Shown here piece after piece: positions 1,945 to 50,784 of a stretch of DNA of 64,000 nucleotides (its first letter is position 1; every line of letters starts with the position of its first letter). The DNA is taken from the NCBI GenBank assembly GCA_024137785.1, contig JAHRHZ010000115.1, positions 1,246,428 through 1,310,427 of the forward strand. Direction: 5' to 3'. Made by a program: the position numbers and the translations under genes. The notes beneath the pieces are model-generated. The model made no database searches. It was not told the origin of the DNA and saw only the letters and a list, made by a program, of their open reading frames with translations. This stretch comes from Ginglymostoma cirratum. Lineage: Eukaryota.

Positions 1945-2014
1945 ATGCATGGAATACCGAAAGGTCTGGTGTTTTCAATTTACTATCCCATCCTTGCAAT
2001 AATCGGAGTGCCAG
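1945..2014 (+). CDS. GPR139/GPR142-like class A GPCR (gene 1), coding exon 1
   Basis: 70 nt encoding MHGIPKGLVFSIYYPILAIIGVP+G, followed by a GTGAAG donor at 2015. The phase-1 join to 3404 gives ...GVPANL, the TM1 motif. Confidence 0.88.
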
Positions 2015-3403
2015 GTGAAGTATAGAACTTCAGTCGTAGCTGCTTGGATCGTGTGTCAACTGCATCAGTTCTTCACTTTGTCACGAGCGCATCTCCATGA
2101 TATAGATCCTTTCTGCTCTTAACTAGCTACTACTATCACTTCAACGGTACAAATTGTTCACCTGATGTGATATTATTTCTGCTTTTTATTTGCACCGTCA
2201 TGATTTTTCTTTAACCGTCTTATCTCGCCAGCTAACTTAATAATTTATGATATTGACTGAGATGATTTCTCTCTATGTATATATTTTAATTTGTCTTATT
2301 TGACGTGTTGTTTCACCAGCTTTCCCATGTCGTTTCTTTCTCATGAACTGCCTAATTTACCCCTTTAATGTTCATGTGCCTGGGTGTGACGTGTATCACT
2401 TCAAATTTTTATTAGACCCCGCCCCGCCATTTATCATTATCATCTCAAGATATAAACATGGATAGATTGCTTTGTTCCCAATCACTGCGGAGGACTTATG
2501 ATATTGTTAGCTAGGTTAGTGCAATTGTGCTGTATTAATAACAATGTTTTCAAGGACCAAATACCACAAAAATACTGCAGTGTAGTGTGTAGCATTTCTT
2601 CATTGCTACTAGAAAATGATAGAAATTGCTGTTTATTATGAGAGACGCTGAATTCAAATCTAGTGCAGCTATGTTTAAGTTTCGTGGGCGTAATAAGATC
2701 ACATGCAAACTACTACCAAAAACACTGGTTTTCTTTTTAAAGGATTGCTGTTAGTGATTTGGAAGTAACTCAGAGAAGGCAAGATTCGCAGCATTGCAAG
2801 ACTGCACACCAAAGGTCCTTGCAATTATCACTTGAAGAAGTCAATACTAAAATTCAGTGCTGTCCACATTTCTTTCCAAACGTGGAGAAATGAAATTGGC
2901 CACACACTTCGTTCTGTTTCCACATTTATATCAGCATATAGTTTCTGTGAGTCGATGCAACTCATTTCCTTAAAACGAACTGTATTTGATCCTGAATGAA
3001 GTGTAACCCGTGTTCCAACCAGCTTCCACACTCGTTGTTGATCACTTACTACTTGCCCACTGCAGCATTTTTCTAAAGTATTTTGCTGTTATTATTTATC
3101 TAGATCATTTAATGGATCAATGTTTTCTAGATATGACTTATCCTTGGTGCAGATATCTGCTAAAAATCCAAGCATATTTTTAAGCTGGATGTTTATTTTT
3201 AATGCAATAACTATGGCGCCTGGTGCAAGGTATAATTTTCGTAGTTATATGCTTCACAGTTTATCCAGTGAAATAGAGAATTTTACTGAAAATTGAACAA
3301 GTATTTTGACTGTTCTTCTACCTTATGAAACACAAATTCTCTCCCACTGTCTCTCCGCCACCCCGTATCTCCCACTGTCCTTCTTTCTCACTGTGTTTTA
3401 CAG

Positions 3404-4302
3404 CTAATTTGACTGTGATTGCGATCTTGTCTCAGAGAAGATGTGGTCTGTCTGCGTGTGTGATTCTTTACCTGCTGTCCATTGCGGTGTCAGATCTCCT
3501 GGTGCTGGTTACCGCTGTAGTATTAAACCGGATTGCTGGGATTTACTTTCCATACAGTTTCCTGTCTATCACTCCAGTTTGCAGTCTCCGTACTGTCTTA
3601 ATTTCCACTGTTGTAGACAGTTCTACTTGGCTAACTGTCACTTTCACCTTTGATCGATTTGTGATGATTTCTTGTCAGGAGCTGAAAACAAAATATTGCA
3701 CTAAAAAGACAGCAGCAAGGGCCATAGGAGTTGTATCTGCATTGTGTTGTATTAAAAGTGCATTTTTATATTTTATATATGAACCTCTGTACACGTTTAA
3801 AAATGTATCCTGGTTCTGCAACCCAAAGTTAATATTTTATATTTCACCTGCATGGGCAGCATATGACTTAATTCGTAGCATTTTCAATCCTCTTCTACCA
3901 TCCATTCTGATTTTCCTACTCAATGCTCTGACTGTTCGATACATGCTCGTGGCCGTGAGGGCCCGCAGGAGACTTCGGGTCCAGAGTCACGGACAGCATC
4001 AGAGTGACCCAGAGATGGAGAGGCGGAAAAAGTCCATCGTTTTACTCTTTGCAATTTCAGGTAGTTTCCTATTGTTATATCTGTTACCTTTTATAACGGT
4101 CCTGTATGTCCGAATTGCTAAAGTTGCCTATTTCTCAGGTTCAGGTTTCAGTAAATCGACATTTATCCTTGAGGAAAATGGAGCCATGCTGTTATTTTTG
4201 TGTTCCTGCATTAACCCATTTATTTATGCTGGAACACAAAATAAATTTAGAGTCGAATTGAAGAATTGGCTGAAATATCCATTGCTCCAATTTCTTAAAT
4301 GA
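3404..4302 (+). CDS. GPR139/GPR142-like class A GPCR (gene 1), coding exon 2; spliced product 322 aa
   Basis: TTTTACAG acceptor ending 3403; open frame with 7TM motifs (AVSDLL, FTFDRF, KYCT, PLLP, KSIVLLFAIS, INPFIY); stop at 4300-4302. The ORF-track start at 3325 is intronic. Confidence 0.92.
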
Positions 4303-4813
4303 TTCGAAGTTTTACTAATGAGTGTATCCAATGTCAACAGTGTGCAATGTTCCAAAAGTGCCATGTTACAACTCTCAGATGGGAAATATGCAATTTAAAC
4401 AGGCAGAATTTGAAGTAAAAATCAGTGGTATTAGGACATCCTATGTTTTGTTCACTGATGAGTTTTAATGTCAACAGAGAAAAAAAAAACACCATTTGTT
4501 GTCCCCCATAATTGCGGGCATATTATACACTGATACGGTGACTGCATATGAAATAAATAGAAGCACATTGTCCTGTAAAACCGATTGAAGAAATGTTTCA
4601 TTATTCAAATATGTTTAATGTTCTATCATGCAACTGACTGAGTTATTGCCCAGAGTGACATAAATCGAGACAAAGCCTAATATTTTATGATGAAAAATAT
4701 GAGCTATTGCAGTGACAAATCAGACAACATCCAGTGTCAGATAAGAATGAATGGCCAGTTGTGATTGCACATTGAAAAAAAAAGCAGCACAACAGAATTT
4801 GAGACATTAATTT

Positions 4814-5278
4814 TTTTTTTGTCGTCCGTACTAGAAGTTTTCCAACACTGAGCCTGAGTGCTTAGTAACTCACCAGAGAGCCAGTCAGCTTCAGACACGA
4901 GATAGTTCAACTGGTTCATTCATTCACACTCTGCAGGAAACAGTTTTCAACAAAGTCTGCTTCATATTCAGAACCACTTGAATGCCTTTACAGAATAAAC
5001 TCAGACTGTGAGTCTGGATGTTGTCAGTACCAGAATAAATAATAGTAACTCCAGGCCAGGTGATAGGAACAGATTAATATCCGTCCTTGACCTTCTGTCT
5101 AAACATATAAGGACAGCGGCTGAGTGATATAATCTCTATAATCCATTTTTAAAACATAATGTTCAATGAGGAAACGATCAGAGCGGTGGAGATTAAAAAT
5201 TCAGAGAAGTGATGGAATGTGTTTAGTCACAATTCAAAGTAGCAGAAATGCCCCCCAAACAACCCAGGCCCAGCAGCT
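4814..5278 (-). pseudogene. TCR alpha/delta-type V pseudogene with 23-RSS
   Basis: Translates DYITQPLSLYV*TEGQGRILICSY...YLFWY*QHPDSQSEFIL*RHSSGSEYEADF...TISCLKLTGS..Y*ALR. RSS CTCAGTG (4846-4852), 23 nt, ACAAAAAAA (4814-4822). Degenerate leader ~5231-5278. Confidence 0.85.
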
Positions 5279-5639
5279 GTGCTGATTTGCCCGGTCTATG
5301 CCAGGTGAGTTGGATATTTGAAGACATTCGTTCTAATCGTTATCCTCAACAGTCTTCTGTCAGGTCTCATTTCACAGTTTGTGCGCTCAGAATACAATGG
5401 AACGAATAGGGAGTATGTTAGCTCTGACTGAATAGAAGCATTTCGAAATGGGTTAGCACCAGCGATCACATCGGAGAGAATCTTCCACTTTACAGGCATG
5501 GAGCTGGGTTGAAACACATGCCTGCTATTATTTTATAGAACACGAATGCCGTTGGCTTGGTCACTATTTGTTTCATATCCCTAATTTCCCAAAGGGTGTC
5601 GTGGAGATCTGCAATCTTCTATCTACATTCACATACACC

Positions 5640-7550
5640 TTGTTAATACACATAGCAAATAGCAGGGGTATCCGCACTGAACACTGCGGAATGCCCATGG
5701 TCAGAGACTTCCAATCACAAAAACAATGTTTCACAATCGCCTCTGCCTCCTATTTCCAGGATAATTTTAGATTTACTTTGGATCACACGAGGTCTTATCA
5801 TGTGGATCAGCATTCCATGGAGCAACCTCGCCAAAGGCATTACTGAAGACCATATGAGCCACATAGACTGCATTACCTCCACCAATATATTTCGTCCACT
5901 TTGCAAAACAAAACTCGACTAACCTAATCAGACATGAACCACTGCTAACAAATCCATTCTGTCTATCCCTTTTAATCCTTGCCTTTTCAAATGCAGATTA
6001 ATCTTATCATTCAGAAGTATCTTTTTCTAATACTTCTCTCACATCTGACGTCGGAGGAACTGCCCTGTAATAATCTGTCTATCCCTGCTTCCCAACTTGA
6101 ACAAAGGAACTATGTTAGCTCACGACTAGCTATCCAACACTTCTCCTGTGGGCAGTGAAATATTGAGTACATCTGCCAGGCTCTCAACAATATCTTCCCT
6201 TGGCATCCATAGCAACCTGGGTGCATTTCATCAGAGCTTGGGAATCTATGTATCCTTACTAACGCTAATACAAATCTCATTCATCTTCCTTATAAATCCC
6301 AAAATGCTCTAGCAACTCATCATCCTAACTGAAATTGCCAGCAATAACGTGTTTCTCCACTGTGCGTACAGATGAGAAGTAATGGTTTAAGACCACGTTA
6401 TTGTGTTCAATTCTGGTCGCCACACGACCAGAAGTTAGTGATGGCTTTGGAAAGGGTACAGAAAAGATTTACCAGGATGTGACCTGTTCTGGAGGGGATT
6501 AGCCATGTGGAGAGATTGGAGAAACTTGCGTTGTTCACACTGGAACTGGAGGTTGAAGGAGACCTGATAGACGTCTACAAGATTATGAAGGGCATGGACA
6601 GATCGGACAATCAGAAGCATTTTCCCAGGATGGAAGAGTCAGTAACTGGGGACTTTTGGTTTATGGTGCAAGGGCAACGTTTAATTTTGATGTACGAGGC
6701 AAGTCTTTTTTTACACAAAGGGTGTTGTGTGGCTGGAACTCTCTGCTTAGGGGAGGTCCTGGAAGCAGATATCTTGACAAATACCTGAATAGAAAGGGAA
6801 TGGATGAATAAGTTCCCGGGGAGGGAAGGGGGTTTTCGTTGTGACCGGCAGCATGTCGGTGCAGGCTTTTGGAGGGCCGAAGGCCTGTTCCAGTGCTATA
6901 ATTTTATTTTTTCTTTGTTCTTTTGTACCTCACCCAAGTTCACTGGCTTCATGCACACATTTCCACATTGAGCTCTAATAGGCGTTATCCATTCCCAAGA
7001 ATTCCTCTTACTCTCAATATAATTGTAAAATGACTTGGGATATATTGATCCCATCTGCCAAAGACGTTTCATGGACAAGATTTGCCCTTCAAACATCTTT
7101 TTTAAGGTGCCCATCACACTCTACACTTCAAAAGGCACTTCCTGTATTTTTTTTTGGGAAGTAAATTTCCCTGTGCTTCCTTCCTTTTCTTTACTAGACA
7201 ATTACATCCCTTGACATCCAGGGTTCTCTAAACTTCTGGCCCTTACCCTTCATTCTTAGCGGAACGCACTGGGCCTGATTGTCATTCTCATTAAACTACT
7301 TATAAACGGATTCCGACTTTCCAAATGTCGACTTACCTACAAGTCACTGTTACCAGACGTTTGCCAGAAAGTGTCTAATGATATTGAATTTTACTTTTCT
7401 CCAAATTAGATGGATAACTTCTGCACTTTTCTTGTCCGTTTCCATCATGACTTAAGAATTTGCAGAATCATGGGCAATATTCCCAAAATTCTCGCCAACT
7501 GGCGCTTCAACCACTCGACTTCGTTCCCTACAATTAGGACTGGCGTTGCC
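5640..7550 (-). mobile_element. Decayed CR1-type LINE (ORF2 fragments), interrupted by an opposite-strand CR1 3' fragment
   Basis: Minus-strand ORF2-like peptides (e.g. PKSFYNYIESKR) and CR1-like RT nucleotide motifs at 5650-5950. Confidence 0.65.
6398..6900 (+). mobile_element. CR1 LINE 3' end
   Basis: CVQFWSP..., LERVQKRFTRM, ERLEKLALFTLE...GDLIDVYKIMKG, and a 3' tail ending GGGCCGAAGGCCTGTT. Confidence 0.85.
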
Positions 7551-8149
7551 CCATCAACTGAGTATTAAGAGCCTTTTAACTGTCAGACGGATTACAAAAT
7601 TATATGGGCAGGAAAAATCGAAATGGTTTGGTCCTCCTTTACCTCCCACTTTCTTTGACCACCATGGTTAGTACGGGAAATGTCTTCAGAAATAACATCC
7701 CAGAATGTGTCTCATATTTCCATGGTGACATTCCCATTCCATCTTCTATATCTTCCGTTAGCTTTACTGTACAAATTCTATTATCAGATGGTAATCCTTT
7801 AATATGTGGATGTCGTTGCTCGATGATGTTTCTTTCCCTAAAAATATAAGTCATTCATGACGTTTGTAAAAGTGTGATACAAACAAGTTCATATTGAAAA
7901 ATACAGAATTTTCAATAAAAATTCAACTTGTCTCTACTCATCTCCATCTTTTTTCTGCTTAATAAAATCGCATCATTTTTAACTTATTTATCTCTGCATG
8001 ATTATTCCCAAGAGACCAAACTAGACTAACATTCATTCCATTATTTGCACATTTGACACAACTGACTAGCACTGTGAACGCGGAGTTGGTGTTTCAGTTC
8101 ACCAGTCCGAGACACCCATCTATTGGACACTCCTGGAATTCACAAGCTA

Positions 8150-8590
8150 AATGTTTTTATTGGTCTGCTCTATCTCTGCATCAGTGTGAGGGCTTCAGGG
8201 CACGCACGTCTTGGCTCTTTAGGTTTATTTCCTTTGTACAAGTTGACAGAGAAACTTTCTTGTATTTCTAGAGATTTGTAAACATCCCTCATATATCTTC
8301 AGTAAATGCCTTAACAGTTTCCCGGGGATCGTCGACGTACCTGATTAGGGTTCCACCAGCGTATGTTGTCAACTGACAGTAGTCATGTTTCATGTGCTCT
8401 CCCTTCCGGACGTGAATTCAGATGGAGTTTGTCATACGTAAGCATTGCCACTAGTGCATGTGTCACAAACATAAAATGTTTCATTGTTGACGGAATAAAA
8501 TCACCCCTTTGAAAACACACTCGTAATTAACAATTAAAACTCACTTTTCAGATATATCATTATTTTTGGTCAGGAATATACAAAGCACAT
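8150..8590 (-). pseudogene. TCR alpha-type V pseudogene with 23-RSS
   Basis: 46-nt leader 8545-8590 (in-frame TGA) with GTGAGT donor; V exon TSGNAYV*QTPSEF..YCQLTTYAGGTLI(R)YV..PGKLLRHLLKIY..FSVNLYKGNK..ALKP with frameshifts and a deletion. RSS CACACTG (8182-8188), 23 nt, AAAAACATT. Confidence 0.8.
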
Positions 8591-9384
8591 GGTGTCCGGT
8601 TTAGGTTTTGAAAGAAAATATGAAAATATTGCAACTGTTTTGACCCTCCCCGTCTGATATTAAAGTAGAAAATGGATCGGGATTCATTTACTGGTAGGCT
8701 TTAAAGGAGTTTTCCAAATACAGGACTGAATGCTCTGTTAGAGCAGATGACCGTTGCGCATCAAGACGTGAGATCTGGAGACGTTAACTTCCTCTGAACA
8801 TTTACATTTCTTCTTTCACTTCTCAGTCTGACTTTTCCTATGTCTCTTTGCATTGATCTCGACCTCTCCCTGATGAGACCATACTACTTGAAATAGACAT
8901 GCTCTCTGCTGTAAAATGCATGACAATGGGTACCATGTAAATAATGCAATAATCTACTGTTCTTAGGGAAGGAAATTACTCACCTCATCTGTTCTGGACG
9001 ACACGTGACCCCTACCCACAGCAATAAAGTTGCTTCTTAACTGACTGGCTTGCTTTAAGGGATGGACAAGAAATGTCGTAATATCCATTGGTGCTCACAT
9101 CCCTTCAATGAATAAACCAGAATCATGAGAATGAACAGATAGTTTACCGGGTGGATAAATGCAATTACAAACCCCAAAATGGCCAGCATGTGGTTTGAAT
9201 GTAAATGTGGAATTTTCACTTTGATACTGAGCTGAAAATGAAACGATAAATGTTGTTTCTGTTTGTCTACATTCAATGCAGCCATAAATCAGATTCAATG
9301 AATCCAAAATCACAAATAGTATTGCAATTGAAATTATTACCGAAATCATATCTTCAGCAAGCACTCAATCATCCGCTACACGTT

Positions 9385-9540
9385 GAGAGACAGAGGGATA
9401 GAGAAAGGGAGAGAGAAGAAAGGGAGAGAGGGGTAGAGGGACGGAAATAGAGAGACAGGCAGAGATAGAGAGAGAGCGAGATGGAGACAGTGATAGAGTG
9501 ACAGAGAGCGATCAGGAATGACAGAAATTGTGAGAGAAAG
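9385..9540. repeat. GA-rich low-complexity/microsatellite tract
   Basis: (GA)n/(GAGAGAC)-like runs; a CT-rich tract follows at ~9670-9740. Confidence 0.85.
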
Positions 9541-9859
9541 AGTTATCACTGTCTGTTGTGTTTTCAACAAGCCTATGGCTGGAGACAGGTAATCTCTGAA
9601 TATGACTTGTATGAGGTCTAGTGTCAACATCCTAAAATAACTTATTTGTTGAGAATGCCGCCGAACAGACTCTCTGTCTGCCTCTCTGCCTGTCTATCTG
9701 TCTCTCTCTCTCGCTCTCTTTCTCTCTCGCTCTCTCTCTGTGCCAGGAAGAATTTAAAGTTCTCTCCCATCAGCATCATTGACAGTCTTTATCTCGATAG
9801 TTAAGCCTGTTTGATCTGTCTCCTCCCAGTCTTCATCATTATGATCAGAAAGACCTGCA

Positions 9860-10295
9860 ATGACCGGTTTCCAGTTGGAACTCTGATGTTATTCGTTTTG
9901 CGTAAGTTTACATCTGTATTTAGGCAACTTGCTTTCCCCATACCTCGTTGTGTTTGTGTCATGATTCTTTTGTTACAGCCGTTCTGTGCGAGGATGAGAG
10001 CTCACAGGCTAACCAGGTGCTGTCTCTGGAAGGGGAACCAATTGAACATGACTTTCGGCTTCCCATTGGTTCTGGTGATAATGTAGCCTGCAATAGACAA
10101 ACGCTGGCAGGGGCTCCGACATTTGTCGGCTACATATAACAGAGCAATATAACAGTTGGATGCGATGCACTTTCATTTGAGTGAGCAAAGAATACGAAAT
10201 CTATTTCTATATATCACAATGTGGTCGAGGACACAGGTATTATTGTGTGGTCCAGGCACACTGAGACAAACAGTAGACTTGGCCATACAATATCT
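9860..10295 (+). pseudogene. TCR alpha/delta-type V pseudogene with 23-RSS
   Basis: Frameshifted leader 9860-9901 (RFPVGTLMLFVL) with GTAAGT donor; exon from 9979 AVLCEDESSQANQVLSLEGEP...NRQTLAGAPTFVGYI*...VEDTG-YCVVQ. RSS CACACTG (10257-10263), 23 nt, ACAATATCT (10287-10295). Confidence 0.82.
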
Positions 10296-10547
10296 TGAAT
10301 TGTGTTGTGTCTTCACTTCCTGTAAACTTTCGCCAAAACAAGCATTTTACAGATACCAGTAACTTCAGAAACCTTATTTTTTAAAGCACAATCTTTGGGG
10401 TGGATTAAATTACAAAATTTTACGACCATGATAAATTATAGAGAATCACATTAAATGAGGCTTTCTGTGCGTGCAATATTAAAAGTAAATGATGGACAGA
10501 AAAAGAGCGGTGCCTTTTTAAGGATGGACAGGTATATAGTTAGTTAG

Positions 10548-10582
10548 TTAGATAAATAGATAGAAAGATAGATAGATAGATG

Positions 10583-10616
<34 letters not shown>

Positions 10617-10634
10617 CAGATAGATAGATAGATA
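10548..10634. repeat. (GATA)n microsatellite
   Basis: Tandem GATA/TAGA units. Confidence 0.95.
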
Positions 10635-11917
10635 ATGTGCACTTCACCTGTGTCCCGAGGCATTTTATTTATTATTTTTCTTGTAAGTTGCATTTGTTCA
10701 TACTTGGTTGTGTTTTTCAGTTACTTATTCTAAACCTGAGGCATTTTTCAATATCAGTTTATCACGGAACTGCTGGACAAATTATTTTTCCTTCAAGACA
10801 ATGCTACTGTGGACCCTAATGACTTTGTATGCTGCTTTTATTACATTCTCGAATGCCTCTTCTCCATATTCAGAGATGAAAGAGTTGCTGAAGTATATAG
10901 GGGTGCTACTTTGAATAAGAGTGCTATGAGACACTTTGCAATATTGAGGATGAACCTGCGTAAAACTTCACTCTTCCTGGTGATTGAGGAGGCAAAAAGA
11001 TAGTGGTCAGTAGAAGAGAGCGCTGCAGGAAAAATATGTTTATACTTATCACCCAAAAGTGATATTTAGGAAGGTACATGAGCAGGAAAGGTTTAGAGGG
11101 ATATGGGCCAAACACAGGCATATGGGATAAGTGTAGTTTAGGAAAATCAGTCGGTTGGACGAATTGGGCTAAAGGGCCCGTTTCCATGCTATATGATGCT
11201 CTGGCTCTATGATATAACCACAAGTTACTTTAGTGTGAAATTCACACATAATCAGCCTTGACTAAACCCAGTTTCTCTGCATTTTGACCGGAGCTGTATT
11301 TGTCTGGAAGTCTTTCGCGTTACCTTGTGGAAAGAAATTAATCAGGTAGAGGTTTCCTGCTTTATATTATCTGGAAAAATACAAGGGGAGGTGTTTTCTG
11401 TCTTTAATAAATGTATACGGACCTTTGGGGAACTGTGATTGCGAAGGCAGATTTATTTCCTGTCGTTCCTGCATTGATTCTGTCAATGTATGGTAGGACT
11501 TACAGAAAGTATAAAGGTAGGTTCTGACAGTATCTTCTTTCTGCTTTGGTCTTTGTTGTGATCAATGTTGATACTAAGACGAAAGTGTATACTCTGAAGT
11601 GATCTTAAATCTGTGTGAAGGAAATGGTTACACTTACAGGTGAAGAGCGGAGTCGGGTTTTTCAAAATGTTCAAATAGGGATAAGAATTTAAAGCCAAAA
11701 TTTATCACAGAATAATTTACGAAGATAAGTGGTAGTATGAATACAATTTGTCAAGATAAGCTAACAGTAAAGAGAACCTCGTCAGTTCCTGTTCAATGTG
11801 GTGCGTTCCATGATCTTTCAAATGAATTTGTGATTCTCTCACAGTTGGGACTAAATTGCTTCAGCTGATTGTTGTGATAGCGCCCTTTGGTGAGCACTGA
11901 GTTGAAATCTCAGGATG

Positions 11918-12015
11918 GAGTTTTGTATGGGATTCACTATATCAATGCATCACTGTGGTTTGCATGGAACACAGGTACATGACACTGTTGAAAATGAGGG
12001 TATCGACAATAGATT
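11918..12015 (-). pseudogene. 3' remnant of a TCR alpha-type V segment with RSS
   Basis: SIVDTLIFNSVMYLCSMQ, then perfect heptamer CACAGTG (11951-11957), 24 nt, ACAAAACTC (11918-11926). The upstream part is degraded or replaced by (TAA)n. Confidence 0.7.
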
Positions 12016-12184
12016 ATTATTATTATTATTATTTATTCATTTGTAGGAGTTGTTCAGAAGAGTTGAGCAGTAGAAACTCGATAACTCCACCATTTTATTG
12101 GAGAAACTCGTGGTTGGTGAACGTGAATTAATTAAAGTCAAAAAACAGTATCATTTCTAAAATATACTCACATCTGTCTTGTTT

Positions 12185-12256
12185 GCCCTGGTGCGACAAT
12201 GGCTAGGATTCAACACTTTCACTGCCATGTCCTGGCTTCGTCACCTGGTTAGGAAA
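12185..12256 (+). pseudogene. tRNA-Glu(TTC) pseudogene
   Basis: GCCCTGGTGCGACAATGGCTAGGATTCAACACTTTCACTGCCATGTCCTGGCTTCGTCACCTGGTTAGGAAA is colinear with vertebrate tRNA-Glu, anticodon TTC retained, many stem mismatches. Confidence 0.75.
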
Positions 12257-12364
12257 TGCTGGCTTATTGTTCATATGCAACCTCTTCATGTGTCGATGAA
12301 TTTCTGGCATTGCAATCAGCAAAGACAGGGCGAATCTGTCAGAACAAATGAAGGTTGTGTCCTT

Positions 12365-13666: not shown

Positions 13667-14133
13667 GTGTTTCAATTTTTTTTCACTAATCATATCGGTC
13701 ATGCTGCTTGATAAGTCAATGCTTTAATTACCAGCATTTTTGCTATGAATTATGTTCATGGAAATTATTCGATCAATTCTGCATTTTGTTACAGGGGTAA
13801 TGGCAAAGGTGAGGTGTCCCAGGATCGTTCAGAATTAGTGGTTCTGAAGGACAGATCTCAATGCCATACTGGAGTTACTCAGCAACCCGCTGCCAAACTG
13901 AAATCCGGTACGTCCCCTTTCTTGTGGAATATCCAAGATATGAATTCAAGATGTACATCACGACAATAATGACGGAAAGAATTACAGACAGATTTTCTGC
14001 TGTTTTGAGCAGAGAACACAAATTAGTTCATTTGAAAGGAAACTTTTGATATATTCCCCCCAAAAGCGTTGCAAACTTCTGTGCTATGGAGCACTCAGTG
14101 TTGCAGAGAAACAGCGGAGCCTGTGCAAAGTCC
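13667..14133 (+). pseudogene. TCR alpha-type V pseudogene
   Basis: Degenerate leader (GTG start, donor mutated to ATAAGT); exon from ~13795 GNGKGEVSQDRSELVVLK...ITDRFSAVLSREHKLVHLK...NFCAME. RSS CTCAGTG (14094-14100), 24 nt, GCAAAGTCC. Confidence 0.8.
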
Positions 14134-15198
14134 ATCCTGAGAATTCTAGGTAGGATCCACCAGAGAGCGACATCACACTCACAAACAGAAACAGAAATTC
14201 AGACAACAGAATGAAGATCATAGTGTTTCCAGTAAAATATCAAAATAAAGCACAACATTCTACAGGAAGAGCTGAGGACAATATGGGATTTATTTTCTTT
14301 CATTTTAAATTACAATAAGATTAGTTCACACAATAATTTGTGGTGCATTACCATGCAGTCAGTCGTTTGATAAACTTTCTGCAGTCACGTAAATTATTGG
14401 GATCTCTTCGTGTATATTTGTGATCACAAACCCCTTAGGCATTGGCCTGGCGGCTTCATTGTACCTGGCGCATGGCTGAGGTAGACATGCAAAAACCCCT
14501 TTTCCAGTGGTTTTAGTGGCTTGAATTTCCTGGCAGTTACTTCAGAGAAAACGATTGCATCTCACAAAAATCTGCGATCACTTCAGTAATTTTTGCCTCA
14601 TTTTCTTCCTCTTCCCTCTGTGTGAATCTCGTTACTATTTTTGACAAGAATTTAAAAATACATAAATGTGTATCATATGTTATAATACATATTGTATATT
14701 ATATACTATACATAATATGTTATGTTCTGTTTAATACCTTCAATCATATTTTACCGTTGGATATTACACTCTTTTATTTTTCATTCTTGTATATCTACAG
14801 GATTTTAAAGTGCAACTGATAGTGAGGAAGTATCTAAATCTTCGGAATCTATGCTTGTTACAGAGATAGAAGCTGCACCATTGATCCGTGCCATTGCAGT
14901 CGCATGAGAAACCCTGCAATGATAGATACAACGTCCTGAGTAACTAAATATCACAGAGATAATGTTACCAGCCATCGGGATTGGGTCATGCCTCAGTTCA
15001 GTTTAGAAGTAAAGAGCAGCACTCCAGAAATTACATTTGAGTGAAAGAAATTTCACCAATTTCTGACCAGGAGGGGCACCGTGTTGTGAAAAACAGTAAG
15101 CACAAACGATTCTGCCAAACTTTGTTCTGCACTCAGCTGAGATGATATCAACCATGCTGATTAAAACACAAATTTAAACAAATGCGAATACTTGTGGA

Positions 15199-15629
15199 GG
15201 TTTTGGTATTGGCTCTTGACTTCAAACCGATGACGGGCCTCACTGCACTGAATAGATTGTCCCGCTCTGCATATCCTGGCTTCTTACATTACAGTAACCA
15301 AGCTTTCTAGATGTGTCTGTAGATGAAAATATCGTCCTGAGATTTTTGATTTCTCCAGATCTACCTTGGTAATCTTCCAGCTTGGAGGCCAATCCGTTTT
15401 CCATCGGTCCCATTGCTTGATGCCAACATTCAGAACAGTATATTCACAATAGAAATCATCGACCCCTCTTCTGACAGTTGTTATCACTACAGACTGAGTT
15501 CCACTCTCTGTGCATAGTCCATCTTTGATGGCCGAGGAATTAAAGAGTGAGTGGTTAAATGGAAATTATCTAAATATGTGTCTAATGGTAAAAAAGCCAA
15601 TCATAAAACTCCATGTAGTGTATGCACAT
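15199..15629 (-). pseudogene. TCR-type V pseudogene
   Basis: Exon from 15522 DGLCTESGTQSVV...FYCEYTVLNVGIKQWDRWKTDWPP...DTSRKLGY...IY-SAVR; degenerate heptamer 15231-15237, 23 nt, nonamer ACCAAAACC (15199-15207). Leader-like ATG at 15629. Confidence 0.72.
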
Positions 15630-15909
15630 CTGACGGCGACCTACACCAGATTCCATTGGCAACGTTGCAACACTTGCCTAGACTGTGCTGATATAAATTA
15701 AATTACATATAAATGAACACAGTCCAGTGCCTGTTCGCCAACACACCAAGCAGTAATGTCAGAAACATGTCAGAGAGAATTCCTGACATCGAATTGCCCG
15801 ATTTGAGGTTGCAGATTGAGAAAGAAGAATTGGATATCTCTTTCGAGACTGTGTAAGTGGAAAAGGTCAAAGGTCCTCCATGTAGGAGATTCGATGATCC
15901 ACTCGTAGA

Positions 15910-16200
15910 TTCATAGAGTTGGCCAGCACAGAAACATACTCTTCAGTCCAGCTCGTCTATACCGACCAGATATCCTAAAATGATCTAGTGCAGTTTGCCA
16001 GCATTCGAACAATATCCTGCTAAAACTACCCATGTATCGATCCACATGCCTTTTAATTTCGGAACTGTGTCCACTTTCACCATTTCCTACGGCAGCTGTT
16101 TCCATAGAAATAACTCCATGTGCATGAAAAAGCTGCCCGTCAGGCCTCGATTAACTATTTTCCCTCTCACCTTCAACACATACCCTTCAAATCTGTTCCA
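15910..16200 (-). mobile_element. CR1 LINE 3' fragment
   Basis: Reverse complement of the CR1 3' tail also seen at 6700-6900 and 11060-11200. Confidence 0.6.
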
Positions 16201-17589
16201 TTCCGACTTTTCCGAGTCACTTGAATAGTAAGCAGAGGCTTGGCAGTCACAGACTTCAAGATTCAATCCTATTCTTTCTGCTCCTTTTGCTGCAATCGCA
16301 ACTGACAGTTGGCACAGAATTCATTGACCTTTGTGTCTGCAGTATTCCCAACCACAGCATTCGTTTGTTTCTTCCCTTCTGAAGCGTTCTGGGGACATTC
16401 CTCCTGGATTTGCACAGCTATTATTGTTTGGGAGACCAATGCAGGGGAAATAAGAATCCAAAAGAGCATTTCCCGCCTTTTTGTATAAAAACAAACAAAA
16501 AAATTCACAAGTTGCCTCGAGATGTTCATAATTTCACTCTAGGCCTCATTGAAGTAACCACATTGACCAGGATTGTTTCAAAATGTCAGCTCTTTCTGTG
16601 TAAACAATAATCTTATCATAAGTGTTAAATCCAAGCTCGCAGACCAGAACAAACTTCATTTACCTTTGGAAATTATTGATGATAATTCATCTGATCATGG
16701 TGCCTTGCCAATCAGAACGATGTTCTGGAATTTTATTCCACAGCAATGACGTATTGTTGATATCGTTGCAAAGCAGAATGAATGAATAAAAAAAAATCTA
16801 AGTTTGCAACATAAATAGACAATAGCAGCCTGGGTGTAAAATGAATTGCGAATGTCACCCAGAAATAAATTTTAAAAAAAAGAAGTACGGCAGAAAATTT
16901 AATTAAGGAAATAATCTGCTACGAGGTGAATATGTTAAAAATGTTGAATTACAGCAAAACTATAAAGTACTGAGAAGAGTGATTTTTTTTTGTTCTCAAA
17001 TTGCTTGGCAACTGAAAACAGTGGGGTGGTGTTTTCACTGTTCATTTAGGTCCGTGGAATGTTCACTTTTGAATTCAATAGTTCAGGAAATTTGTTAATT
17101 AAACAAGTCATTTAGGTGCTATAACCGTTAACTTAAAATTTGTAGCACTGATTTATTGTCAATTATGCAATTGTAATTAAGTTGTCAATAGTGATATTCG
17201 TGTCTATTTACATTTTTCCACTGGGGAAGTTGCCAACAATGACCTCTGGGAGACGTGGCAGAAATTGTCAACCATCTCTTTAGAGCCACAATTGGTCAAA
17301 TCTCTCCCTGTAAAATTTCACACAGGATTGAAAATGGCCCCTTTACGATAACTGTTGGGTGGAGTGAATGAGAAAATAAAAACAGAGGAAACAATGGTTT
17401 GCAATTGGCATGAAATGAAACGACTTCAAAACAGAAGCGTAGCAATCGGAAGTCAAATCAGCAACCCAAAAAAAAGGAAGATAGAGAGAAGAAGAGGACA
17501 GCAAATAAAGCAGCTAGAGGAATGGGCATGAGAAACCTTTGAATAAAAATAAAAGAATGTGACAAACATTTGATGAAGACAAATTGAAT

Positions 17590-17905
17590 CCAAGATTATA
17601 GGGAGTCTAGGACGAAAGGGCATGATTTCAGAACAAAGGCTGGCACATTTAGAACAGGGATGAGAAGGTTTTTCTTCTCTTTGGGGACCTGTGGAATTCT
17701 TTATTACAGACTTTTGGCGAGGCTGGCTCGTTTATACTGTCTAAGGATAAAATAAACAGAGTTTTAATCAATATGGGAACCAGGAATTATGGGGAAAACT
17801 CAGAAACGTGGAGTTGAGGAACAATGGATAAGCCATGATCTCGTTAAATGGCAGTGTAGGCTCGATGAGATGGATCTCCTGCCTCTGCTGCTACGTCTTA
17901 TGCTC
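17590..17905 (+). mobile_element. CR1 LINE 3' fragment
   Basis: ESRTKGHDFRTK..FRTGMRRFFFS-like peptide and tail AGCCATGATCTCGTTAAATGGC...CTCCTGCCTCTGCT. Confidence 0.7.
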
Positions 17906-18619
17906 TTAATATGAAGCTGTATAACTAACCTGTTCGGTTTATGAATTTAAGAAACTATGTCTATCCCTTCCAGGAACTGAAATTTGGGTTTATCTGCTCG
18001 GGTTCGAGGCTGATTATGACTTAATCTGAGGTTTGAATATGGATGAACAGGAACCATTACCCATTGTGCAGGTAATGTTTAGAGTTTAGAGGAAATGTGA
18101 GAGACAATATGTCACAGATATGTTATTGAGAATCCGGAAATAACTGTCTGTCTGTGTTGCAGAAGCAGTAACCTTCAAAATACTTAGTTACTTAGATATG
18201 CATTTACAGTACAAGGGTGTTCTAAACCAAGCAGTAAGTGCGGGAAAATGGGATTCGAATAATCAGGTGGTTGCTTTTGACCAAAGTGTCCAAACGGGCT
18301 GAAAGGCTTTTTCAACCTGGACTTCTCTGATTCCATAACCAGCTGTGCTTCAGTCAATTTGCGAAGTGACAACTCAACATTAGCAAAATGCATCTGATCG
18401 AGATTGGAATCAAAGCCACCTTCGCGGGGCTTGTAGTCAGACCCATTAGCCATTACATCACTGGTCTCGTTTATGATCTGGTATTTACCTCAGATCCCGG
18501 ACAGTTGTGGTAATAAAAGAGATATGACTGGCAATGGCAATAGTCACAAGAACTGCAGCCAAAAGTAAACACCATCACGAAATGAAAACCCAAAGAACTG
18601 TAGATGCTGTAAATCAGGA

Positions 18620-18817
18620 ACAAAAACAGAAGTTGTTGGAAAATCTCAGCAGGTCTGAAAGTATCTGTGAAGAAAAGAATCAGAGTTACCGTTTTACTTC
18701 CAGAAACTCTTCCTCAGTTATGAGGAAACGTCACCAGATCCGAAACGTTAACTCTGAATTGTTATTCCCAGATGCTGTCAGACCTTCTGAGCTTTCCCAA
18801 CAACTTCTGTTTTTGTA
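18620..18817. repeat. Palindromic (hairpin) repeat of the type bordering Penelope-like elements
   Basis: Arm AAAAACAGAAGTTGTTGGAAAATCTCAG...CAGAGTTACCGTTT is the near reverse complement of AAACGTTAACTCTG...CTGAGCTTTCCCAACAACTTCTGTTTTT. Confidence 0.85.
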
Positions 18818-19929
18818 CATGCCATCTCTGCCTCACTTCAATTTTCCTGACTTTGAAAAACAGTGAAGAAATAAATTTCCCTATAAAAAGGAAACACGTT
18901 TCTCTTCAGGTGCTGACTTCAGTATTGCTTCATTCTTGCAAGAACTTTCCATCATTTTATTTACATTCACTCTGCTATTTTACGACTGACTCCAGTGAAA
19001 TGCGTTTTCATGCTTCGAATCATCGTCATTTCGAGTCAAGACCATGAACGAATTCTGCTAGAAGCAATTGATCATTTCTTTCCGGAAGTCTAGAATCAGA
19101 GGAATTGAATGGCACAATAATTGTTGCCGTTCCTTCATTGCAGCTGAGTGCCTCAAAGCAGGCTCCTGTTACCATCAGCCTGCTGCTTACCTACCTGCAG
19201 TACATTGGTTGAAAAACATCAGATTATCACAGTTCTGCTTTCTTCATATTGAAACCAATGGCGACAATACGAACTGTTTCAAGGATTAACATCTGCAGAA
19301 TACAGAAGGAGACTGTGACTGCTTCTCCTCTGCCTTGCCTCCGGCTGTCTCTGACCATTCAGTTCCCATGTCCAATGAGCTGCTTGGTACAAACACTGGA
19401 AGATGGTGAACCCAATCTTTACCTGGAAACTTGGTAGGGTATGTGAGGAGCAACACACTGAAATGAGTTTGATCACAGCTGCGGAAATAGTTATTAAGAT
19501 CTCATGTTTATAATTGCGGACTAAGGAAGCGAGCTACTTGCTGCAGTAGTCCTAGCCTCTGGCCTGCTCTTTTAGCCACTGTATTTATTCTGCGAATTCC
19601 GTTTCTAGCCAATGAAAATCCCCATGGTGTTGATAACGGGGGATCAGTGTTGGTGACTTTATTGAGTGGCCCAAGTGGAAGGAACGTATAATGAGCATTC
19701 TTATTCAGGTTAATGCTGAGGAAGTGACGCTGATTTCAATGTCAGCAAACTCTTCCATTAGTTATGAATAACCAAGAGTAAGTGGATGGGACAGTAACCG
19801 TGAAGTTGAAATGGCCTGAATGTTGTATACAGACCGATCTGTGCATTTTGCCACATTGCTGTGCCGTTGACATTTTCACAGTTGTACTGACATTGATTGG
19901 TTGAAAGCACAATTTCTGGGTCACATTTG

Positions 19930-20106
19930 GAGGTGCCGGTGTTAAACTGGTATGTACAAATTCAGAAGTCACAAGACTCCAGGTTATAATCCAGGAGGAA
20001 TATTTGAAATCACAAGCTTTCATCTGACGAAGTAGCAGTGCTCCCAAAGCATGTGATTTCAAATAAACACGTTGGACTAAAACCTGGTGTCATGTGACTT
20101 CTGAAT
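19930..20106. repeat. Second-type palindromic repeat
   Basis: TTCAGAAGTCACAAGACTCCAGGTT...TTTGAAATCACAAGCTTT pairs with AAAGCATGTGATTTCAAA...AACCTGGTGTCATGTGACTTCTGAA. A half copy lies at ~52755-52880. Confidence 0.85.
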
Positions 20107-21378
20107 CTGGAGCAGAGGTCTTCAGTGTCAGTGGTGAAATTTTGTTAGGGCACATAGCGTTTTAAGTTTTTGATGCCAAGTAGGAACATTCAATTTCACC
20201 GAAAATGTGAATAAAATGAGAATGTTGGCGAAACTCTTGGATTTCGCATCATCTGTGGAGTCAAAAGTAGATCTAACGTTGCAATATCCAATAGGACTCT
20301 TCTTGAGAAAGGAAGGGAACTGAAAAGTGATTACTTTTATGTGTTGGCAGAAACTGGTCTGGCGAGGAAGGTAAAGGCTCTTGCTGCACTTTTCAGCCAA
20401 GTCTAACCATTGTGTTCAATGACTTCACAGCATGACCTCTGTTCAGCAATTTGATGAGAACCTAGAAACCCTAACCAACCAGGTCTTTCATGTGTCTGGA
20501 AATAGAATCAAAACAGTGAGCATGTCGTTCTGCAGAAGAATCATTATGGACCCAAAACCTTAAATCTACTTCTCTCGCCCCATATGTTACCTGACTTGCT
20601 ATGTTTCTCCAGCATTCGCTTTTTTAAAATAATTCTTAAAGGGGTGCCTTCAATTCTTAAAGAAACTTCTTTAATTTTTTACGCCATTGTGCCTTTGCTC
20701 AGAAGAGCTGGAGATTTGGTCAATTTTGTAGCTATAATTAAAATATAGTTTGCATCTCTATTTCCCATTTATCATCATCCGCACTCTCTTTTTCATGTGC
20801 TCTGGGCACCCTCACCATGTGTTCCATTTCGTCTTATTACTATTATGGCGGTAACTTAGGGGAAATAAATAAATAACTTTATACATAAACAAGAAATATA
20901 TAAAAATGATTGTTGCAACATCTTTCACAATTTCAGCATATTGCAAACTATATTCGGCACAATTGAATAACTTTTCATTTGTAGTGCTGGAAATGCAATC
21001 TCAAAGATGAACAAAGCAAGATTCCGCAGTGAAAATCGACAGAGCCAAGCAGAAAACTGGTTTCAGAGCTAATATGTGGTGGCGAAATGTTGGTCAAATA
21101 CGACAGGGATAAAATTTCTGGTCCTTCTTGGCATATCAACAGTGAAATATTATACACTCCACCTGAGAGAGTGGACACATCCAATGGTTTAGCATCTCAT
21201 CAGCACGGTGGATACCTCAGTATTCCTTCAGCATTCCCAACGGGGAAGCGTTGAAGCTGGCTTATCGGCCTAAAACGTCTCAAGTCTGGCTTGGTGGGAC
21301 AACGACGTCTTATTCCAGGGAGAATGAGGAAGAGAGTACCGATCATTGAGTCATACTAATATATATAATTCTCTTCTG

Positions 21379-22280
21379 TCACTGTTTAAGGCAAGAAATG
21401 ACCCCAGTGAAAGGAAAAATCATTACTTTCTGAAGTTCCTTTCTGAACTTGGTCTGGGATACTGTGTATATGAAGACGTTGTTGCAAGAACTGAGTAGCT
21501 GGAGCATGTTCGTCGTCTCTTGAAAGATATACTGCAAGTCCTTGATATCCAGGCCGATGAAGTAACCCTTACCCGTAACCTGGACATAGAGGAAACGTCC
21601 AACATGCGTGGCCCACAAGCATAGGAAGCTGAGAGAGATTGTGAAGAGAAGAACAATAGACTTTTTGCGGTTGGCCATCTCTGCGTCTCTGCCATTCTCG
21701 ATGCCCCGGAGTCTCTTACGGGCTCGGCTAGCCATTAGAATGTGTCTTACGGTCATGGCGTTAAGCAGAAAAATGAGGACAAATGGTAGAAATGGGGTTA
21801 AGACGTGGTCCAGCCAATCGTAGGCCTGCCAGACAGGTAAGGCATAAAAAGTCGATTTGATGTCACAGAACCAGGGTACACCATCCAACACATATAGTGG
21901 CTGATAGATGAAATAGAAAGGGATGTTCTTAATGCAACTTAAAGCACAGACTATTTCTATGACCAGCGATGCAGTTTTCTCAGTACAATATCTGATCTTG
22001 AGACTTTGACAGCAGATGGCCACAAAGCGGTCGATGGTGAAGGTCACTGTCAGCCAAACTGAGCAATCCTGGGTAACATAAACTAGCACAGTGCTGAATC
22101 TGCACCCGGGTGTGGTAGAAAGCAGACTATACCTAAAATAGAGGCGGCTGATCCTGTTTAGGATGACTGCAAAGATGATGACAAGGAAATCTGACACTGC
22201 TATCGCCACGAGATAGTAGGTGATACACGACGAAAGTCCACACTGTCTTCGGCATAGGATTATGATCGCCACCAAGTTGG
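21379..22280 (-). CDS. GPR139/GPR142-like class A GPCR (gene 2), coding exon 2; spliced product 323 aa
   Basis: Acceptor CCCACACAG ending at 22281; open frame ANLVAIIILCRRQCGLS...AVSDFL...FTIDRFVAICC...RYCTEKTA...PFLP...KSIVLLFTIS...NNVFIY; stop at 21379-21381. Confidence 0.92.
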
Positions 22281-23852
22281 CTGTGTGGGATCAAAACAGA
22301 GAGATATTTTACAAAGCAGTCTCAATCCACTAACTATTGCCTGCTCCAATATATTAATAAAACTATCCCATTGTGTCTATTTGCGACCTCCAAATTTAAT
22401 GATTATTTATCCGCATCCAATGCTGATTTGAAAATTTCACAGAATAAGTATCATTGAAAACGCTGATTAGTGCAATGGCCGCTCTGTGAGTAATCAGTCA
22501 TTCCTCCTGGAGTGCTGCACAGCCTCAACTCTATTAACATTTATTTTTAAAATCTGACACAGAAAAATCTAAGGCAATTTCATCTGATAAAGAATTTCAT
22601 ATCGATCAAATCATGGCCTTTTAGTAAAATGGGACAAGAATACAGAGACTAAGACTTTGATAGGATAGTTTAGATGTAAACCATCTACTTTGAAATTTCC
22701 AATTTCATATGAAGTAGAAAGAGAAAGCTTGATCCACCTGAGATGAAGCTTTTTAAATAGTTATGTTTGCATATTAACGTAGGCACATATTCGTACAAAA
22801 TTAGAAGTTTAAATTGATTAGATATTGGGGAAGTTCATTAGATATTTATTGGCATTTAACCTTGGGCGCAGAGATTACTTTTGACAAACATCCTGGGAAG
22901 AACGTTTCTTTGGTCTGTAATGCAACAGAAAAGTATGAACAAGATAACGTCGTAACAGTACCAAAAGACAAACAACGTAAAAAGAACGGCAGAAACAATT
23001 TTAAAACAGGATCACTGTGGCCTCGAGAGAATCAAAAACCGCTGCTTCGAACCGAACAACCAACCTAAAGAATCCAAATAGGCTTATATTAGTGATTTGT
23101 TGAAAATATATCAAAGTGATTTGAATAAGTGCTGTTTGAAAAGTATTTTAAATTAATGACAACAAACTCCACGCTGTTATTAAATTTCTGTTTTAAACAA
23201 TCTTACAGCATGAAAAATCGAGGAAATTGTAAAAGGTAGCTGCCAGACAGAGACACTGGGTTTGTTTAACTTTTCCACATCGGATAAGAGGGAGAGACTG
23301 AATGGCATATTGTTGCATTATGTGCAATAATACAAATTGTTCGTGCGATATTGTTCATTACACTTCATAGTCCATCAATCCATTTGACCATATTTCTAAT
23401 AATTTACAGACTTAAAATTCAAATAATATCCTCGAATGCTTCATTATACAAGAACATGTGATGCACCATATTCCACCAGAAGACAGCAAAATAACAAAAA
23501 AAAAAGCGCTTTCATAGAATTTGATCACCGCTGGAAAGGTCAGCATTTCTTGATCTTCTCTCACTTCCTTTGAAGTATAAAGCATTCTCGGACGTTTCAC
23601 AGGCTAGCCAAAATGTGTAACAGTGCAGTGGGTCTGGAGTCTGAAATAGACAAGACCAGGGAAGGATAGCATAATCGCTTCCCCTAAAGATCAAAAGAGA
23701 ACCAGGTGTGGTTTTACAGTAAACGATGATATTTTCAATGTCATTATCACTGAGACTAGCTTTCAGCTGCGGGCTATTACTGACAAAAAAGGAAGAGAGA
23801 AGTGTTCTTTTGTTCTACAAAAACAGAAACATCTTTGGGATTTATGACTCAC

Positions 23853-23922
23853 CAGGGATACCAACAACAGCGAGAATGGGATAGCAAATTGCAAATATCG
23901 GACCAATAGCAGGTTCATGCAT
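23853..23922 (-). CDS. GPR139/GPR142-like class A GPCR (gene 2), coding exon 1
   Basis: 70 nt encoding MHEPAIGPIFAICYPILAVVGIP+G with GTGAGT donor; same length and phase as exon 1 of gene 1. Confidence 0.88.
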
Positions 23923-50740: not shown

Positions 50741-50784
50741 TTTATTTCTGACTCCAGCATCTGCAGTTCTTTCTGCCTGTGAGA

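Follow-up and report, generated by a model that had tools for sequence, protein, structure and literature searches.

The window analysed here, a 64-kb stretch of nurse-shark DNA, carries two intact GPCR genes (gene 1 and gene 2), whose lineages separated long ago. They probably belong to a diversified set of receptors sensing peptides or small polar molecules, lie in a duplication-prone antigen-receptor region and stand outside V(D)J recombination. The ligand class and the tissue of both genes are those which we infer from the evidence below. The coding exons and the candidate signals flanking gene 1 are located as follows:

1889..1894, plus strand: TATA-like box TATAAA, a candidate from the sequence, 56 nt 5' of the gene 1 ATG
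1945-2014, plus strand: gene 1 coding exon 1, 70 nt, ATG at 1945, short N-terminus and first part of TM1
3404-4302, plus strand: gene 1 coding exon 2, rest of the 7TM domain, stop codon included
4552..4557, plus strand: AATAAA, candidate polyadenylation signal, 249 nt 3' of the gene 1 stop
23922-23853, minus strand: gene 2 coding exon 1, 70 nt, donor GTGAGT, matching the N-terminus of XP_048475026
22280-21379, minus strand: gene 2 coding exon 2, stop codon included, 95% identical to XP_048475026

Both genes are two-exon class A GPCRs with open frames and GT-AG phase-1 introns, located in TM1 one codon ahead of N1.50. The intron of gene 1 spans 2015-3403 (1389 nt, donor GTGAAG, 3' end TTTTACAG), its exon 1 is matched by the N-termini of relatives in tblastn, and the encoded protein of 322 aa is free of internal stops. 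For gene 2 (intron 23852-22281, protein of 323 aa) five acceptor offsets were tried, and an open frame resulted from the AG one only. The model agrees with the independently annotated whale-shark RefSeq protein XP_048475026 (323 aa), 285 of 299 residues being identical in exon 2. Two intact GPCR genes of 322 and 323 aa with a 70-nt exon 1, a phase-1 intron and canonical splice sites, as proposed in the original prediction, are thereby confirmed. Both proteins passed the Pfam 7tm_1 cut-off of 30.5 bits (61.7 and 72.8 bits), and an AlphaFold model (pLDDT 70.9) matched class A receptors with a probability of 1.00 in a fold search. D2.50, D-R-F, C3.25, N7.49 and Y7.53 are kept in both genes, P6.50 is missing from both, and P7.50 is found in gene 1 only. 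Over exon 2 the two proteins are identical at 152 of 289 positions (53%).

A homologue search yielded 1,339 match clusters at E ≤ 0.001; of the best 120 relatives 117 were named, all of them from sharks or rays (19 species), which bears out the prediction of an expanded orphan GPCR family in cartilaginous fish. A short N-terminus like that of genes 1 and 2 was found in 79 of these 120. The nearest named relatives of gene 1 are Heptranchias proteins (best identity 68-70%). In the trees, which were built without any true GPR139 or GPR142 protein, the shark family forms a clade (100/99) with an amphibian/sterlet gene, the closest bony-vertebrate relative found. Furthermore, each of the two gene lineages is joined by ray proteins (98/91 and 100/98), and monophyly of the sharks was rejected (p-AU 7.9e-5). 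By these trees, the gene 1 and gene 2 lineages are older than the shark-ray split. A literature search, with subscription journals outside its coverage, found no paper describing the family, and a term search within PMC11979771, PMC8455134, PMC7677710, PMC10620051 and PMC12227049 did not find it either.

The genes had been described as GPR139-like, which is fair as a family label. Human GPR139 was the best sequence match among solved structures for gene 2 (E 1e-11) and for the family profile (E 1e-17), with 47.8 bits for gene 2, barely over neuromedin U receptor 2 (43.7), and 67.4 bits for the profile, compared with 45.1 for the next receptor. The top ESM Atlas clusters were named probable GPR139, followed by FMRFamide-receptor-like. 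Judged by sequence, GPR139 is the nearest characterised relative, and a broad GPR139/GPR142/GPR210-related clade fits. In analogy to GPR139 and GPR142, both genes have two coding exons and a short N-terminus, NPxxY is degenerate, and most family members are without the P6.50-type CWxP motif. The intron of human GPR139 presumably lies at the same TM1 codon and in the same phase. The GPR139 matches and the two-exon structure, together with W6.48 and the residue matching N271 retained in gene 2, would speak for true co-orthologues of GPR139/GPR142, i.e. brain receptors for Trp/Phe or neuropeptides. We consider this highly improbable, since identity to GPR139 is about 25% in the structural alignment, compared with 70-96% identity to human among its orthologues across vertebrates (PMC7318219), and GPR139 ranked 28th in the fold search, among peptide receptors. 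GPR139 and GPR142 are described as class A orphans activated by L-Trp and L-Phe (PMC7318219). At the GPR139 Trp/Phe pocket positions E3.32, F3.33, H5x43, W6.48, R6.51 and N7x38, gene 2 carries V, Y, D, W, H and N and gene 1 carries I, S, R, Y, P and A (read from alignments); unlike in GPR139, E3.32, H5x43 and R6.51 are not kept in either gene. GPR139 orthology was rejected on the low identity and the loss of this pocket. The family is also multi-copy and fast-evolving, whereas GPR139 and GPR142 are single-copy and conserved. Like GPR210A, GPR210B and a third set, reported from coelacanth, gar and fishes as orphans adjacent to GPR139/142 (PMC6504862), it consists of GPR139-related orphans without human orthologues; the word shark is absent from the main text of that paper. 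Proteins of this sort from coelacanth and teleosts share 28-36% identity with gene 2 and fall outside the clade of the shark family with the amphibian/sterlet gene.

Selection was evaluated for gene 2. The 21 listed differences between its exon 2 and the contigs of runs X1 and X2 comprise 13 synonymous and 8 non-synonymous ones, corresponding to a pN/pS of 0.20 (p 3e-4), and a second estimate against the non-coding rate gave 0.30-0.38. Across estimates, which cover gene 2 only and 40 of the 182 rows, dN/dS is about 0.2-0.4 with p from 3e-4 to 3e-9. Purifying selection acts on gene 2, and the prediction, made for both genes, thus stands for the one that was tested. The end branch of gene 1 in the tree is 0.43, compared with 0.04-0.09 in its Heptranchias relatives, and its residues W6.48Y and V3.40T each occur in 1 of the 121 rows of the near clade; branch and residues could be due to relaxed selection. 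The long branch and odd pocket residues of gene 1, as well as the many distant family representatives that are partial, would suit mostly neutral passengers, i.e. gene copies of low importance which multiply and die in a recombination-rich microchromosome, genes 1 and 2 being younger or luckier than the V remnants. With respect to the dN/dS of gene 2 and to lineages which predate the shark-ray split and still keep open frames in many species, this explanation is quite improbable.

The window contains eight V candidates of TCR-alpha/delta type:

4814..5140, minus strand: V1, V pseudogene with several stops, RSS heptamer CTCAGTG and 23-nt spacer, tblastn E 3e-6 to V6
9980..10295, plus strand: V2, heavily decayed probable V remnant, RSS CACACTG-23-ACAATATCT
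13795..14133, plus strand: V3, decayed V remnant, degenerate RSS, nhmmer E 1.3e-4
31171..31512, plus strand: V4, V pseudogene with stops and frameshifts, degenerate RSS
32227..32781, plus strand: V5, leader exon 32227-32278, V exon 32436-32742, near-consensus 23-RSS
33480..33825, minus strand: V6, V pseudogene with a frameshift near the end, near-consensus 23-RSS
36331..36672, minus strand: V7, V pseudogene with frameshifts, degenerate RSS
54752..55720, plus strand: V8, candidate leader 54752-54788, V exon 55374-55680, V-set above cut-off

V1, V2 and V3 lie between the two GPCR genes. The RSS of V1 ends at 4814, 512 nt past the gene 1 stop (about 510 had been predicted), and since V1 is on the minus strand, the two stand tail to tail. 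V2 was recognised by eye in the three-frame translation and by an RSS scan, tblastn and nhmmer giving no match. The prediction that all V segments have decayed applies to V1-V7, which carry stops or frameshifts (in V5 the V exon has one stop and has lost the first Cys). V8, which lies outside 1945..23922, has an open leader and V frame with both cysteines kept, but its RSS is defective (CAAACTG, 24-nt spacer), so that an open frame together with a CAC heptamer was found in none of the eight candidates. Among solved structures V8 matched TCR alpha chains best, and V6 gave mixed Ig-V matches including TCR alpha; a homologue search with V8 returned no candidate. The TRAV/TRDV type of the array is borne out by the TCR alpha matches, leader exons and 23-nt spacers. 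No D, J or C segments were recognised in the 64-kb window, and consequently its status as an active locus does not follow.

Close relatives of the GPCR genes tend to share a single chromosome or scaffold: this holds for 10 of 11 in whale shark, where the sequence measures 11.73 Mb, for 5 of 7 in zebra shark and 8 of 11 in horn shark, and for all 5 in basking shark and all 3 in white shark. In epaulette shark, a scaffold of 5,136,515 bp carries two members, and the last V of the published TCR-alpha/delta scaffold ends at 5,118,634; in these species the link to the TCR scaffold is drawn from sequence length and accession neighbourhood, not coordinates, and for the epaulette shark from length only. 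Gene 2 has its closest epaulette-shark relatives on a 120.5-Mb chromosome, and members from Heterodontus occupy at least six large scaffolds. Of the proposed residence of the family in the TCR V niche, one subclade apparently concentrated on the antigen-receptor chromosome is retained, while other members reside elsewhere. In bamboo shark, IgNAR and TCR alpha V are carried by chr44, and this name cannot be given to the 15.33-Mb or the 13.66-Mb sequence. The Xenopus tropicalis gene of the amphibian relative lies on a 164.03-Mb sequence, which we take to be a different chromosome from chromosome 1. The latter is reported to carry TRA/TRD (PMC12529555), and linkage of the amphibian relative to that locus is not supported.

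According to PMC12227049, the IgH clusters of the elasmobranch antigen receptor complex (AgRC) have V exons of TCR-alpha/delta type between them. Like the AgRC, which spans megabases (PMC12227049), the window shows scattered V exons of this type in both orientations, and we infer that it belongs to this complex. UrIg2 and PSMB5 are given as its non-rearranging residents, and UrIg2, unlike typical Ig/TCR genes, is expressed mainly in gill and liver (PMC12227049); GPCRs are not mentioned in the main text of that paper. The mammalian precedent invoked earlier is backed by human, mouse and sheep, in which olfactory receptor genes lie scattered among TRAV1/TRAV2 (PMC4574546). There, too, the genes between the TCR-alpha V segments are small, intact GPCR genes whose family evolves by birth and death, whereas the V neighbours in the shark are broken and of mixed orientation. 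Since the receptor families are unrelated, the shark arrangement is analogous to the mammalian one and not inherited. We know of no T-cell role of the olfactory genes among mammalian TRAV segments.

The near-consensus 23-RSSs of V5 and V6 in opposite orientations and the CAC heptamer kept by V2 imply that rearrangements could cross the GPCR genes, and close relatives cluster on the probable antigen-receptor chromosome. Both would accord with a lymphocyte-linked role, in which the genes share the enhancers of T cells and the opening of their chromatin, are transcribed in thymocytes or T cells, and form clone-specific receptor sets by V(D)J deletion or inversion. Such a role is improbable, however, as the window is without D, J, C and functional V, the family occurs on many other chromosomes, UrIg2 is active mainly in gill and liver within the same complex (PMC12227049), and mammalian olfactory genes are likewise found among TRAV segments (PMC4574546).

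Growth of the family as a by-product of V-array expansion, with a V+GPCR cassette copied as a unit, would agree with the short distance of V1 to gene 1 and, if the scaffold match holds, with the density of the family on the V-segment chromosome. We regard it as unlikely, too, and the predicted co-duplication with V genes is not supported, because the divergence of gene 1 from gene 2 predates the shark-ray split (AU p 8e-5) and a 7-kb duplication (25391-32421 / 57226-63859) carries the V5 leader without a GPCR. Similarity of introns and flanks was looked for between gene 1 and gene 2, and none was found; the 64-kb window holds no further convincing GPCR remnant (other tblastn matches were weak, E 0.016 and 0.049), and eight V candidates face two GPCRs. 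In the preferred reading of a sensor repertoire outside V(D)J recombination, receptors would come to lie among V segments because their family resides in a duplication-prone antigen-receptor region. The V segments would duplicate, scatter through the region, lose function and decay, selection meanwhile keeping the receptor frames open.

With pocket positions placed by offset from motif anchors (generic list), entropy in 68 distant representatives, mostly unnamed gene models possibly including pseudogenes, was 2.51 bits in the pocket and 2.03 bits at other extracellular-half positions (p 0.007); their intracellular half gave 1.27 bits. For comparison, the near clade (121 rows) showed 1.04 vs 1.23 bits at other extracellular positions (p 0.24). 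Its pocket is polar (N2.61, R3.36, D3.37, D5.39, D5.42, E7.36, N7.39, Q7.42), which points to charged ligands, and the variation of pockets in the family as a whole suggests that many ligands are bound. As there is almost no N-terminus, binding would take place within the helical bundle. The conserved D-R-F, N7.49 and Y7.53 suggest ordinary G-protein signalling, by analogy to GPR139 possibly through Gq. For the expressing cells we lean slightly towards sensory or barrier epithelia; leukocytes are possible, if rather unlikely.

Many paralogues, tandem clusters, a short N-terminus and, as far as the distant representatives show, a variable pocket are shared with vertebrate sensor repertoires such as OR, TAAR, V1R/ORA, V2R/OlfC and the formyl-peptide and Mas-related receptors, from which the shark family differs by its branch of class A. 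The literature portrays sharks as poor in GPCRs and in odorant receptors (PMC8455134; PMC10116579), with OR, TAAR and V1R genes very scarce and a reliance on V2R/OlfC (PMC10116579); the present family is not among the four chemoreceptor families named in the latter source. That it constitutes an unrecognised fifth chemoreceptor repertoire of cartilaginous fish, with tens to hundreds of genes per genome and a main cluster interleaved with TCR-alpha/delta V since before the shark-ray split, converging on the mammalian OR/TRAV linkage, is a doubtful extension. Whatever the tissue, a large, selected and apparently pocket-diversified family labelled 'probable GPR139' in databases would revise the GPCR-poor picture. 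Its apparent residence in the antigen-receptor complex would give an independent example of sensors next to TCR V segments, from which one can ask whether such linkage serves a function or arises simply because the DNA is prone to duplication. The question of tissue is directly testable with the nurse-shark RNA-seq panel of 20 tissues, olfactory epithelium, thymus, spleen and leukocytes among them (PMC12227049).

Two minor observations concern the surroundings of gene 2. The possible-RNA runs X3 and X4 matched only short repeat pieces in its intron, which carries no weight either way. A repeat was found upstream:

26885..27156, strand not assigned: degenerate 34-bp tandem array, about 3 kb upstream of gene 2

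Its lag-34 identity was 0.54, compared with a maximum of 0.41 in 1000 shuffles, and a second copy lies at about 59185-59440.

Both GPCR genes lie where the original prediction had placed them, and the 70-nt first coding exon, the phase-1 intron and the protein lengths were re-derived for both. The observation is real and well described, and its interpretation is supported in part.

Features of the window (window coordinates)
exon 1 1945-2014, exon 2 3404-4302, plus strand: gene 1, 322 aa
exon 1 23922-23853, exon 2 22280-21379, minus strand: gene 2, 323 aa
54752-55720: V8, a TCR-alpha/delta-type V segment including leader and recombination signal (RSS)

The intron is of the GT-AG type and interrupts TM1 one codon upstream of N1.50, and both genes exceed the Pfam 7tm_1 cut-off. 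Exon 2 of gene 1 is 53% identical to that of gene 2 (152/289); sequence comparison found no similarity of introns or flanks. The gene 2 model agrees with XP_048475026, a whale-shark protein annotated independently (285/299 identical), which places the source among orectolobiform sharks near the whale shark. The AlphaFold model of the gene 2 exon-2 product revealed a class A fold with peptide receptors as nearest structures (pLDDT 70.9).

The expanded orphan-GPCR family proposed for this cartilaginous fish was recovered. A search with gene 2 returned 1,339 clusters (90% identity, E≤0.001) among 2,007 candidates. The species make-up is based on the best 120 of these 1,339 clusters, of which 117 were named, originating from 19 shark and ray species and mostly labelled 'probable GPR139'; no chimaera protein was among the named rows of these 120, and 79 of them share the short N-terminus. 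When 50%-identity representatives were searched with a profile, 135 matches fell below 1e-30, and proteins of newt, axolotl, coelacanth and teleosts are among the distant named matches. The family is present in database annotation, and no paper on it was found in the open literature (subscription journals lie outside this coverage).

Among solved structures, human GPR139 is closest in sequence, scoring 47.8 bits with gene 2 and 67.4 bits with the family profile. The identity amounts to only ~25%, compared with 70–96% for the true orthologues reported in PMC7318219. Of the six residues of the Trp/Phe pocket, gene 2 has retained W6.48 and the residue equivalent to N271, carries Y in place of F3.33 and has lost E3.32, H5x43 and R6.51, while gene 1 keeps none; an identity of either gene as GPR139 itself was rejected on both grounds. 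A search with the newt protein gave 25 matches, one cluster each in 20 amphibian species, one from sterlet and four from elasmobranchs, and no amniote or teleost protein was among them. This conserved GPR139-related gene (proteins P0217 and P0309–P0328) occurs in frogs, salamanders, a caecilian and the sterlet with one cluster per species; among the bony-vertebrate relatives found, it stands closest to the shark expansion. In trees that do not include true GPR139 and GPR142, this gene and the shark family are sisters (100/99), and the coelacanth and teleost proteins branch outside them. The latter may correspond to the GPR210 sets described in PMC6504862.

Selection on gene 2 was estimated in two ways. 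One 4,867-nt contig from X1, a sequencing run matching gene 2, covers the gene with 172 differences per ~2,900 letters. Among 40 of the 182 difference rows, 21 lie in exon 2, 13 synonymous and 8 non-synonymous, corresponding to a pN/pS of 0.20 (p = 3e-4), and all eight non-synonymous differences agree with changes in XP_048475026. The second estimate, in which all 14 amino-acid differences to XP_048475026 (at least 15 nt) were compared with the non-coding rate, resulted in 0.30–0.38 (p = 5e-6 to 3e-9). Gene 2 is therefore under purifying selection, and the predicted constraint is corroborated for this gene. Gene 1 shows an end branch of 0.43 versus 0.04–0.09 in its Heptranchias relatives, and its rare changes W6.48Y and V3.40T each occur in one of the 121 rows of the near clade (the set of close relatives). 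Long branch and rare residues could reflect either a new specificity or relaxation.

Because only ~24 residues precede N1.50, the ligand would have to bind inside the helical bundle, where the near clade exhibits a polar pocket (N2.61, R3.36, D3.37, D5.39, D5.42, E7.36, N7.39, Q7.42). With pocket positions taken from a generic list and set by motif offsets, variability among 68 of 77 distant representatives was 2.51 bits in the pocket versus 2.03 bits at other extracellular-half positions (p = 0.007) and 1.27 bits in the intracellular half. Within the near clade the pocket did not exceed other extracellular positions (1.04 vs 1.23 bits, p = 0.24). The family is probably a repertoire of subfamilies that differ in their peptide or small polar ligands and have a G-protein face in common.

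Eight V candidates in both orientations were found in the window, with V1–V3 positioned between the two genes. The V pseudogene expected ~510 nt after the gene 1 stop is V1, whose RSS ends 512 nt past it on the opposite strand; V2 was recognized by eye and RSS only. The claim that every V segment around the GPCR genes has decayed holds for V1–V7, which carry stops or frameshifts, but not fully for V8 (55374-55680), which retains an open leader and V frame and both cysteines, though its RSS is defective (heptamer CAAACTG, 24-nt spacer). The heptamer of V7 (36331-36672, minus strand) likewise begins with CAA. A near-consensus 23-RSS is retained in V5 and V6. Among solved structures, V8 matched TCR alpha chains best, V6 a mixture of Ig-V and TCR alpha, and the V5 fragment antibody V domains. 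None of the eight candidates has a CAC heptamer together with an open frame, and D, J or C segments were not recognized within the 64-kb window, which is therefore a V graveyard. This fits the picture in section 6 of PMC12227049, in which TCR-alpha/delta-type V exons lie between the IgH clusters of the elasmobranch antigen receptor complex (AgRC). The geometry would let T cells delete or invert DNA somatically via the signals of V2, V5 or V6, which would be relevant to the GPCR genes only if T cells express them.

The suggested co-duplication of GPCR genes with V segments finds no support in the trees, where ray proteins group with each of the two gene lineages (98/91 and 100/98); constraining the 13 shark rows to one group was rejected (p-AU 7.9e-5). 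Also against it, an old direct segmental duplication of ~7 kb (25391-32421 / 57226-63859, 70–75% identity) carries the V5 leader and a 34-bp array and no GPCR, its second copy ending before the V exon, and no further convincing GPCR remnant was found in the window. The degenerate tandem array (26885-27156 / 59185-59440), missed by Tandem Repeats Finder, lies with its first copy ~3 kb upstream of gene 2; in several units the minus strand has a heptamer-like motif, CACAATG or GACAATG, and a fitting nonamer was not seen.

The best explanation of the arrangement is that receptors and V segments share a duplication-prone region, where stray copies of V would decay and selected receptors persist. 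It is of an already known kind: as anticipated, mammalian olfactory genes lie between TRAV1 and TRAV2 (PMC4574546), the same arrangement with a different receptor family. The window contributes evidence of selection for one gene, an age for the two lineages and a probable tie of the family to the AgRC.

This tie was followed in other species by using the length of the longest sequence as a chromosome tag and counting close relatives per tag. Concentration on one sequence was observed for whale shark (10/11), zebra shark (5/7), horn shark (8/11), brownbanded bamboo shark (7/11), basking shark (5/5) and white shark (3/3), with a wider spread in whitespotted bamboo shark (4/9), Mustelus (3/8) and sevengill (3/13). 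The 20.36-Mb white-shark sequence is compatible with the complex on chromosome 27, which reaches at least 17.12 Mb (PMC12227049). In the epaulette shark, 18 close relatives are distributed over 10 sequences. Two family members lie on a 5,136,515-bp scaffold; on the TCR-alpha/delta scaffold the last V ends at 5,118,634 (PMC12227049 table S1). Two scaffolds neighbouring in accession number hold eight more of the 18. Strict linkage is opposed by the relatives closest to gene 2 in the epaulette shark, located on a 120.5-Mb chromosome, by their cluster mates in two bamboo sharks on 51.7-Mb and 62.1-Mb chromosomes (proteins P0004, P0005, P0306 and P0307), and by the spread of horn-shark members over at least six large sequences. 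The large-chromosome relatives suggest that a gene was transposed into the V-rich region or out of it. Judged by sequence lengths, linkage to the TCR-alpha/delta region in other species is suggestive. The main text of the AgRC paper leaves GPCRs unmentioned.

Three related, decayed retroelement copies (39600-41250, 48100-50300 and 50780-52350; 63–73% mutual identity by self-comparison) contain GIY-YIG/reverse-transcriptase-like fragments seen by eye and are presumably Penelope-like. Short, imperfect inverted-repeat elements at 18620-18816, 19957-20109 and 50574-50740 (72–77% self-complementary) are probably MITE-like repeats. An assembly gap of 400 N (47575-47974) is followed by a 79-nt near-duplicate (47975-48053 / 48103-48181).
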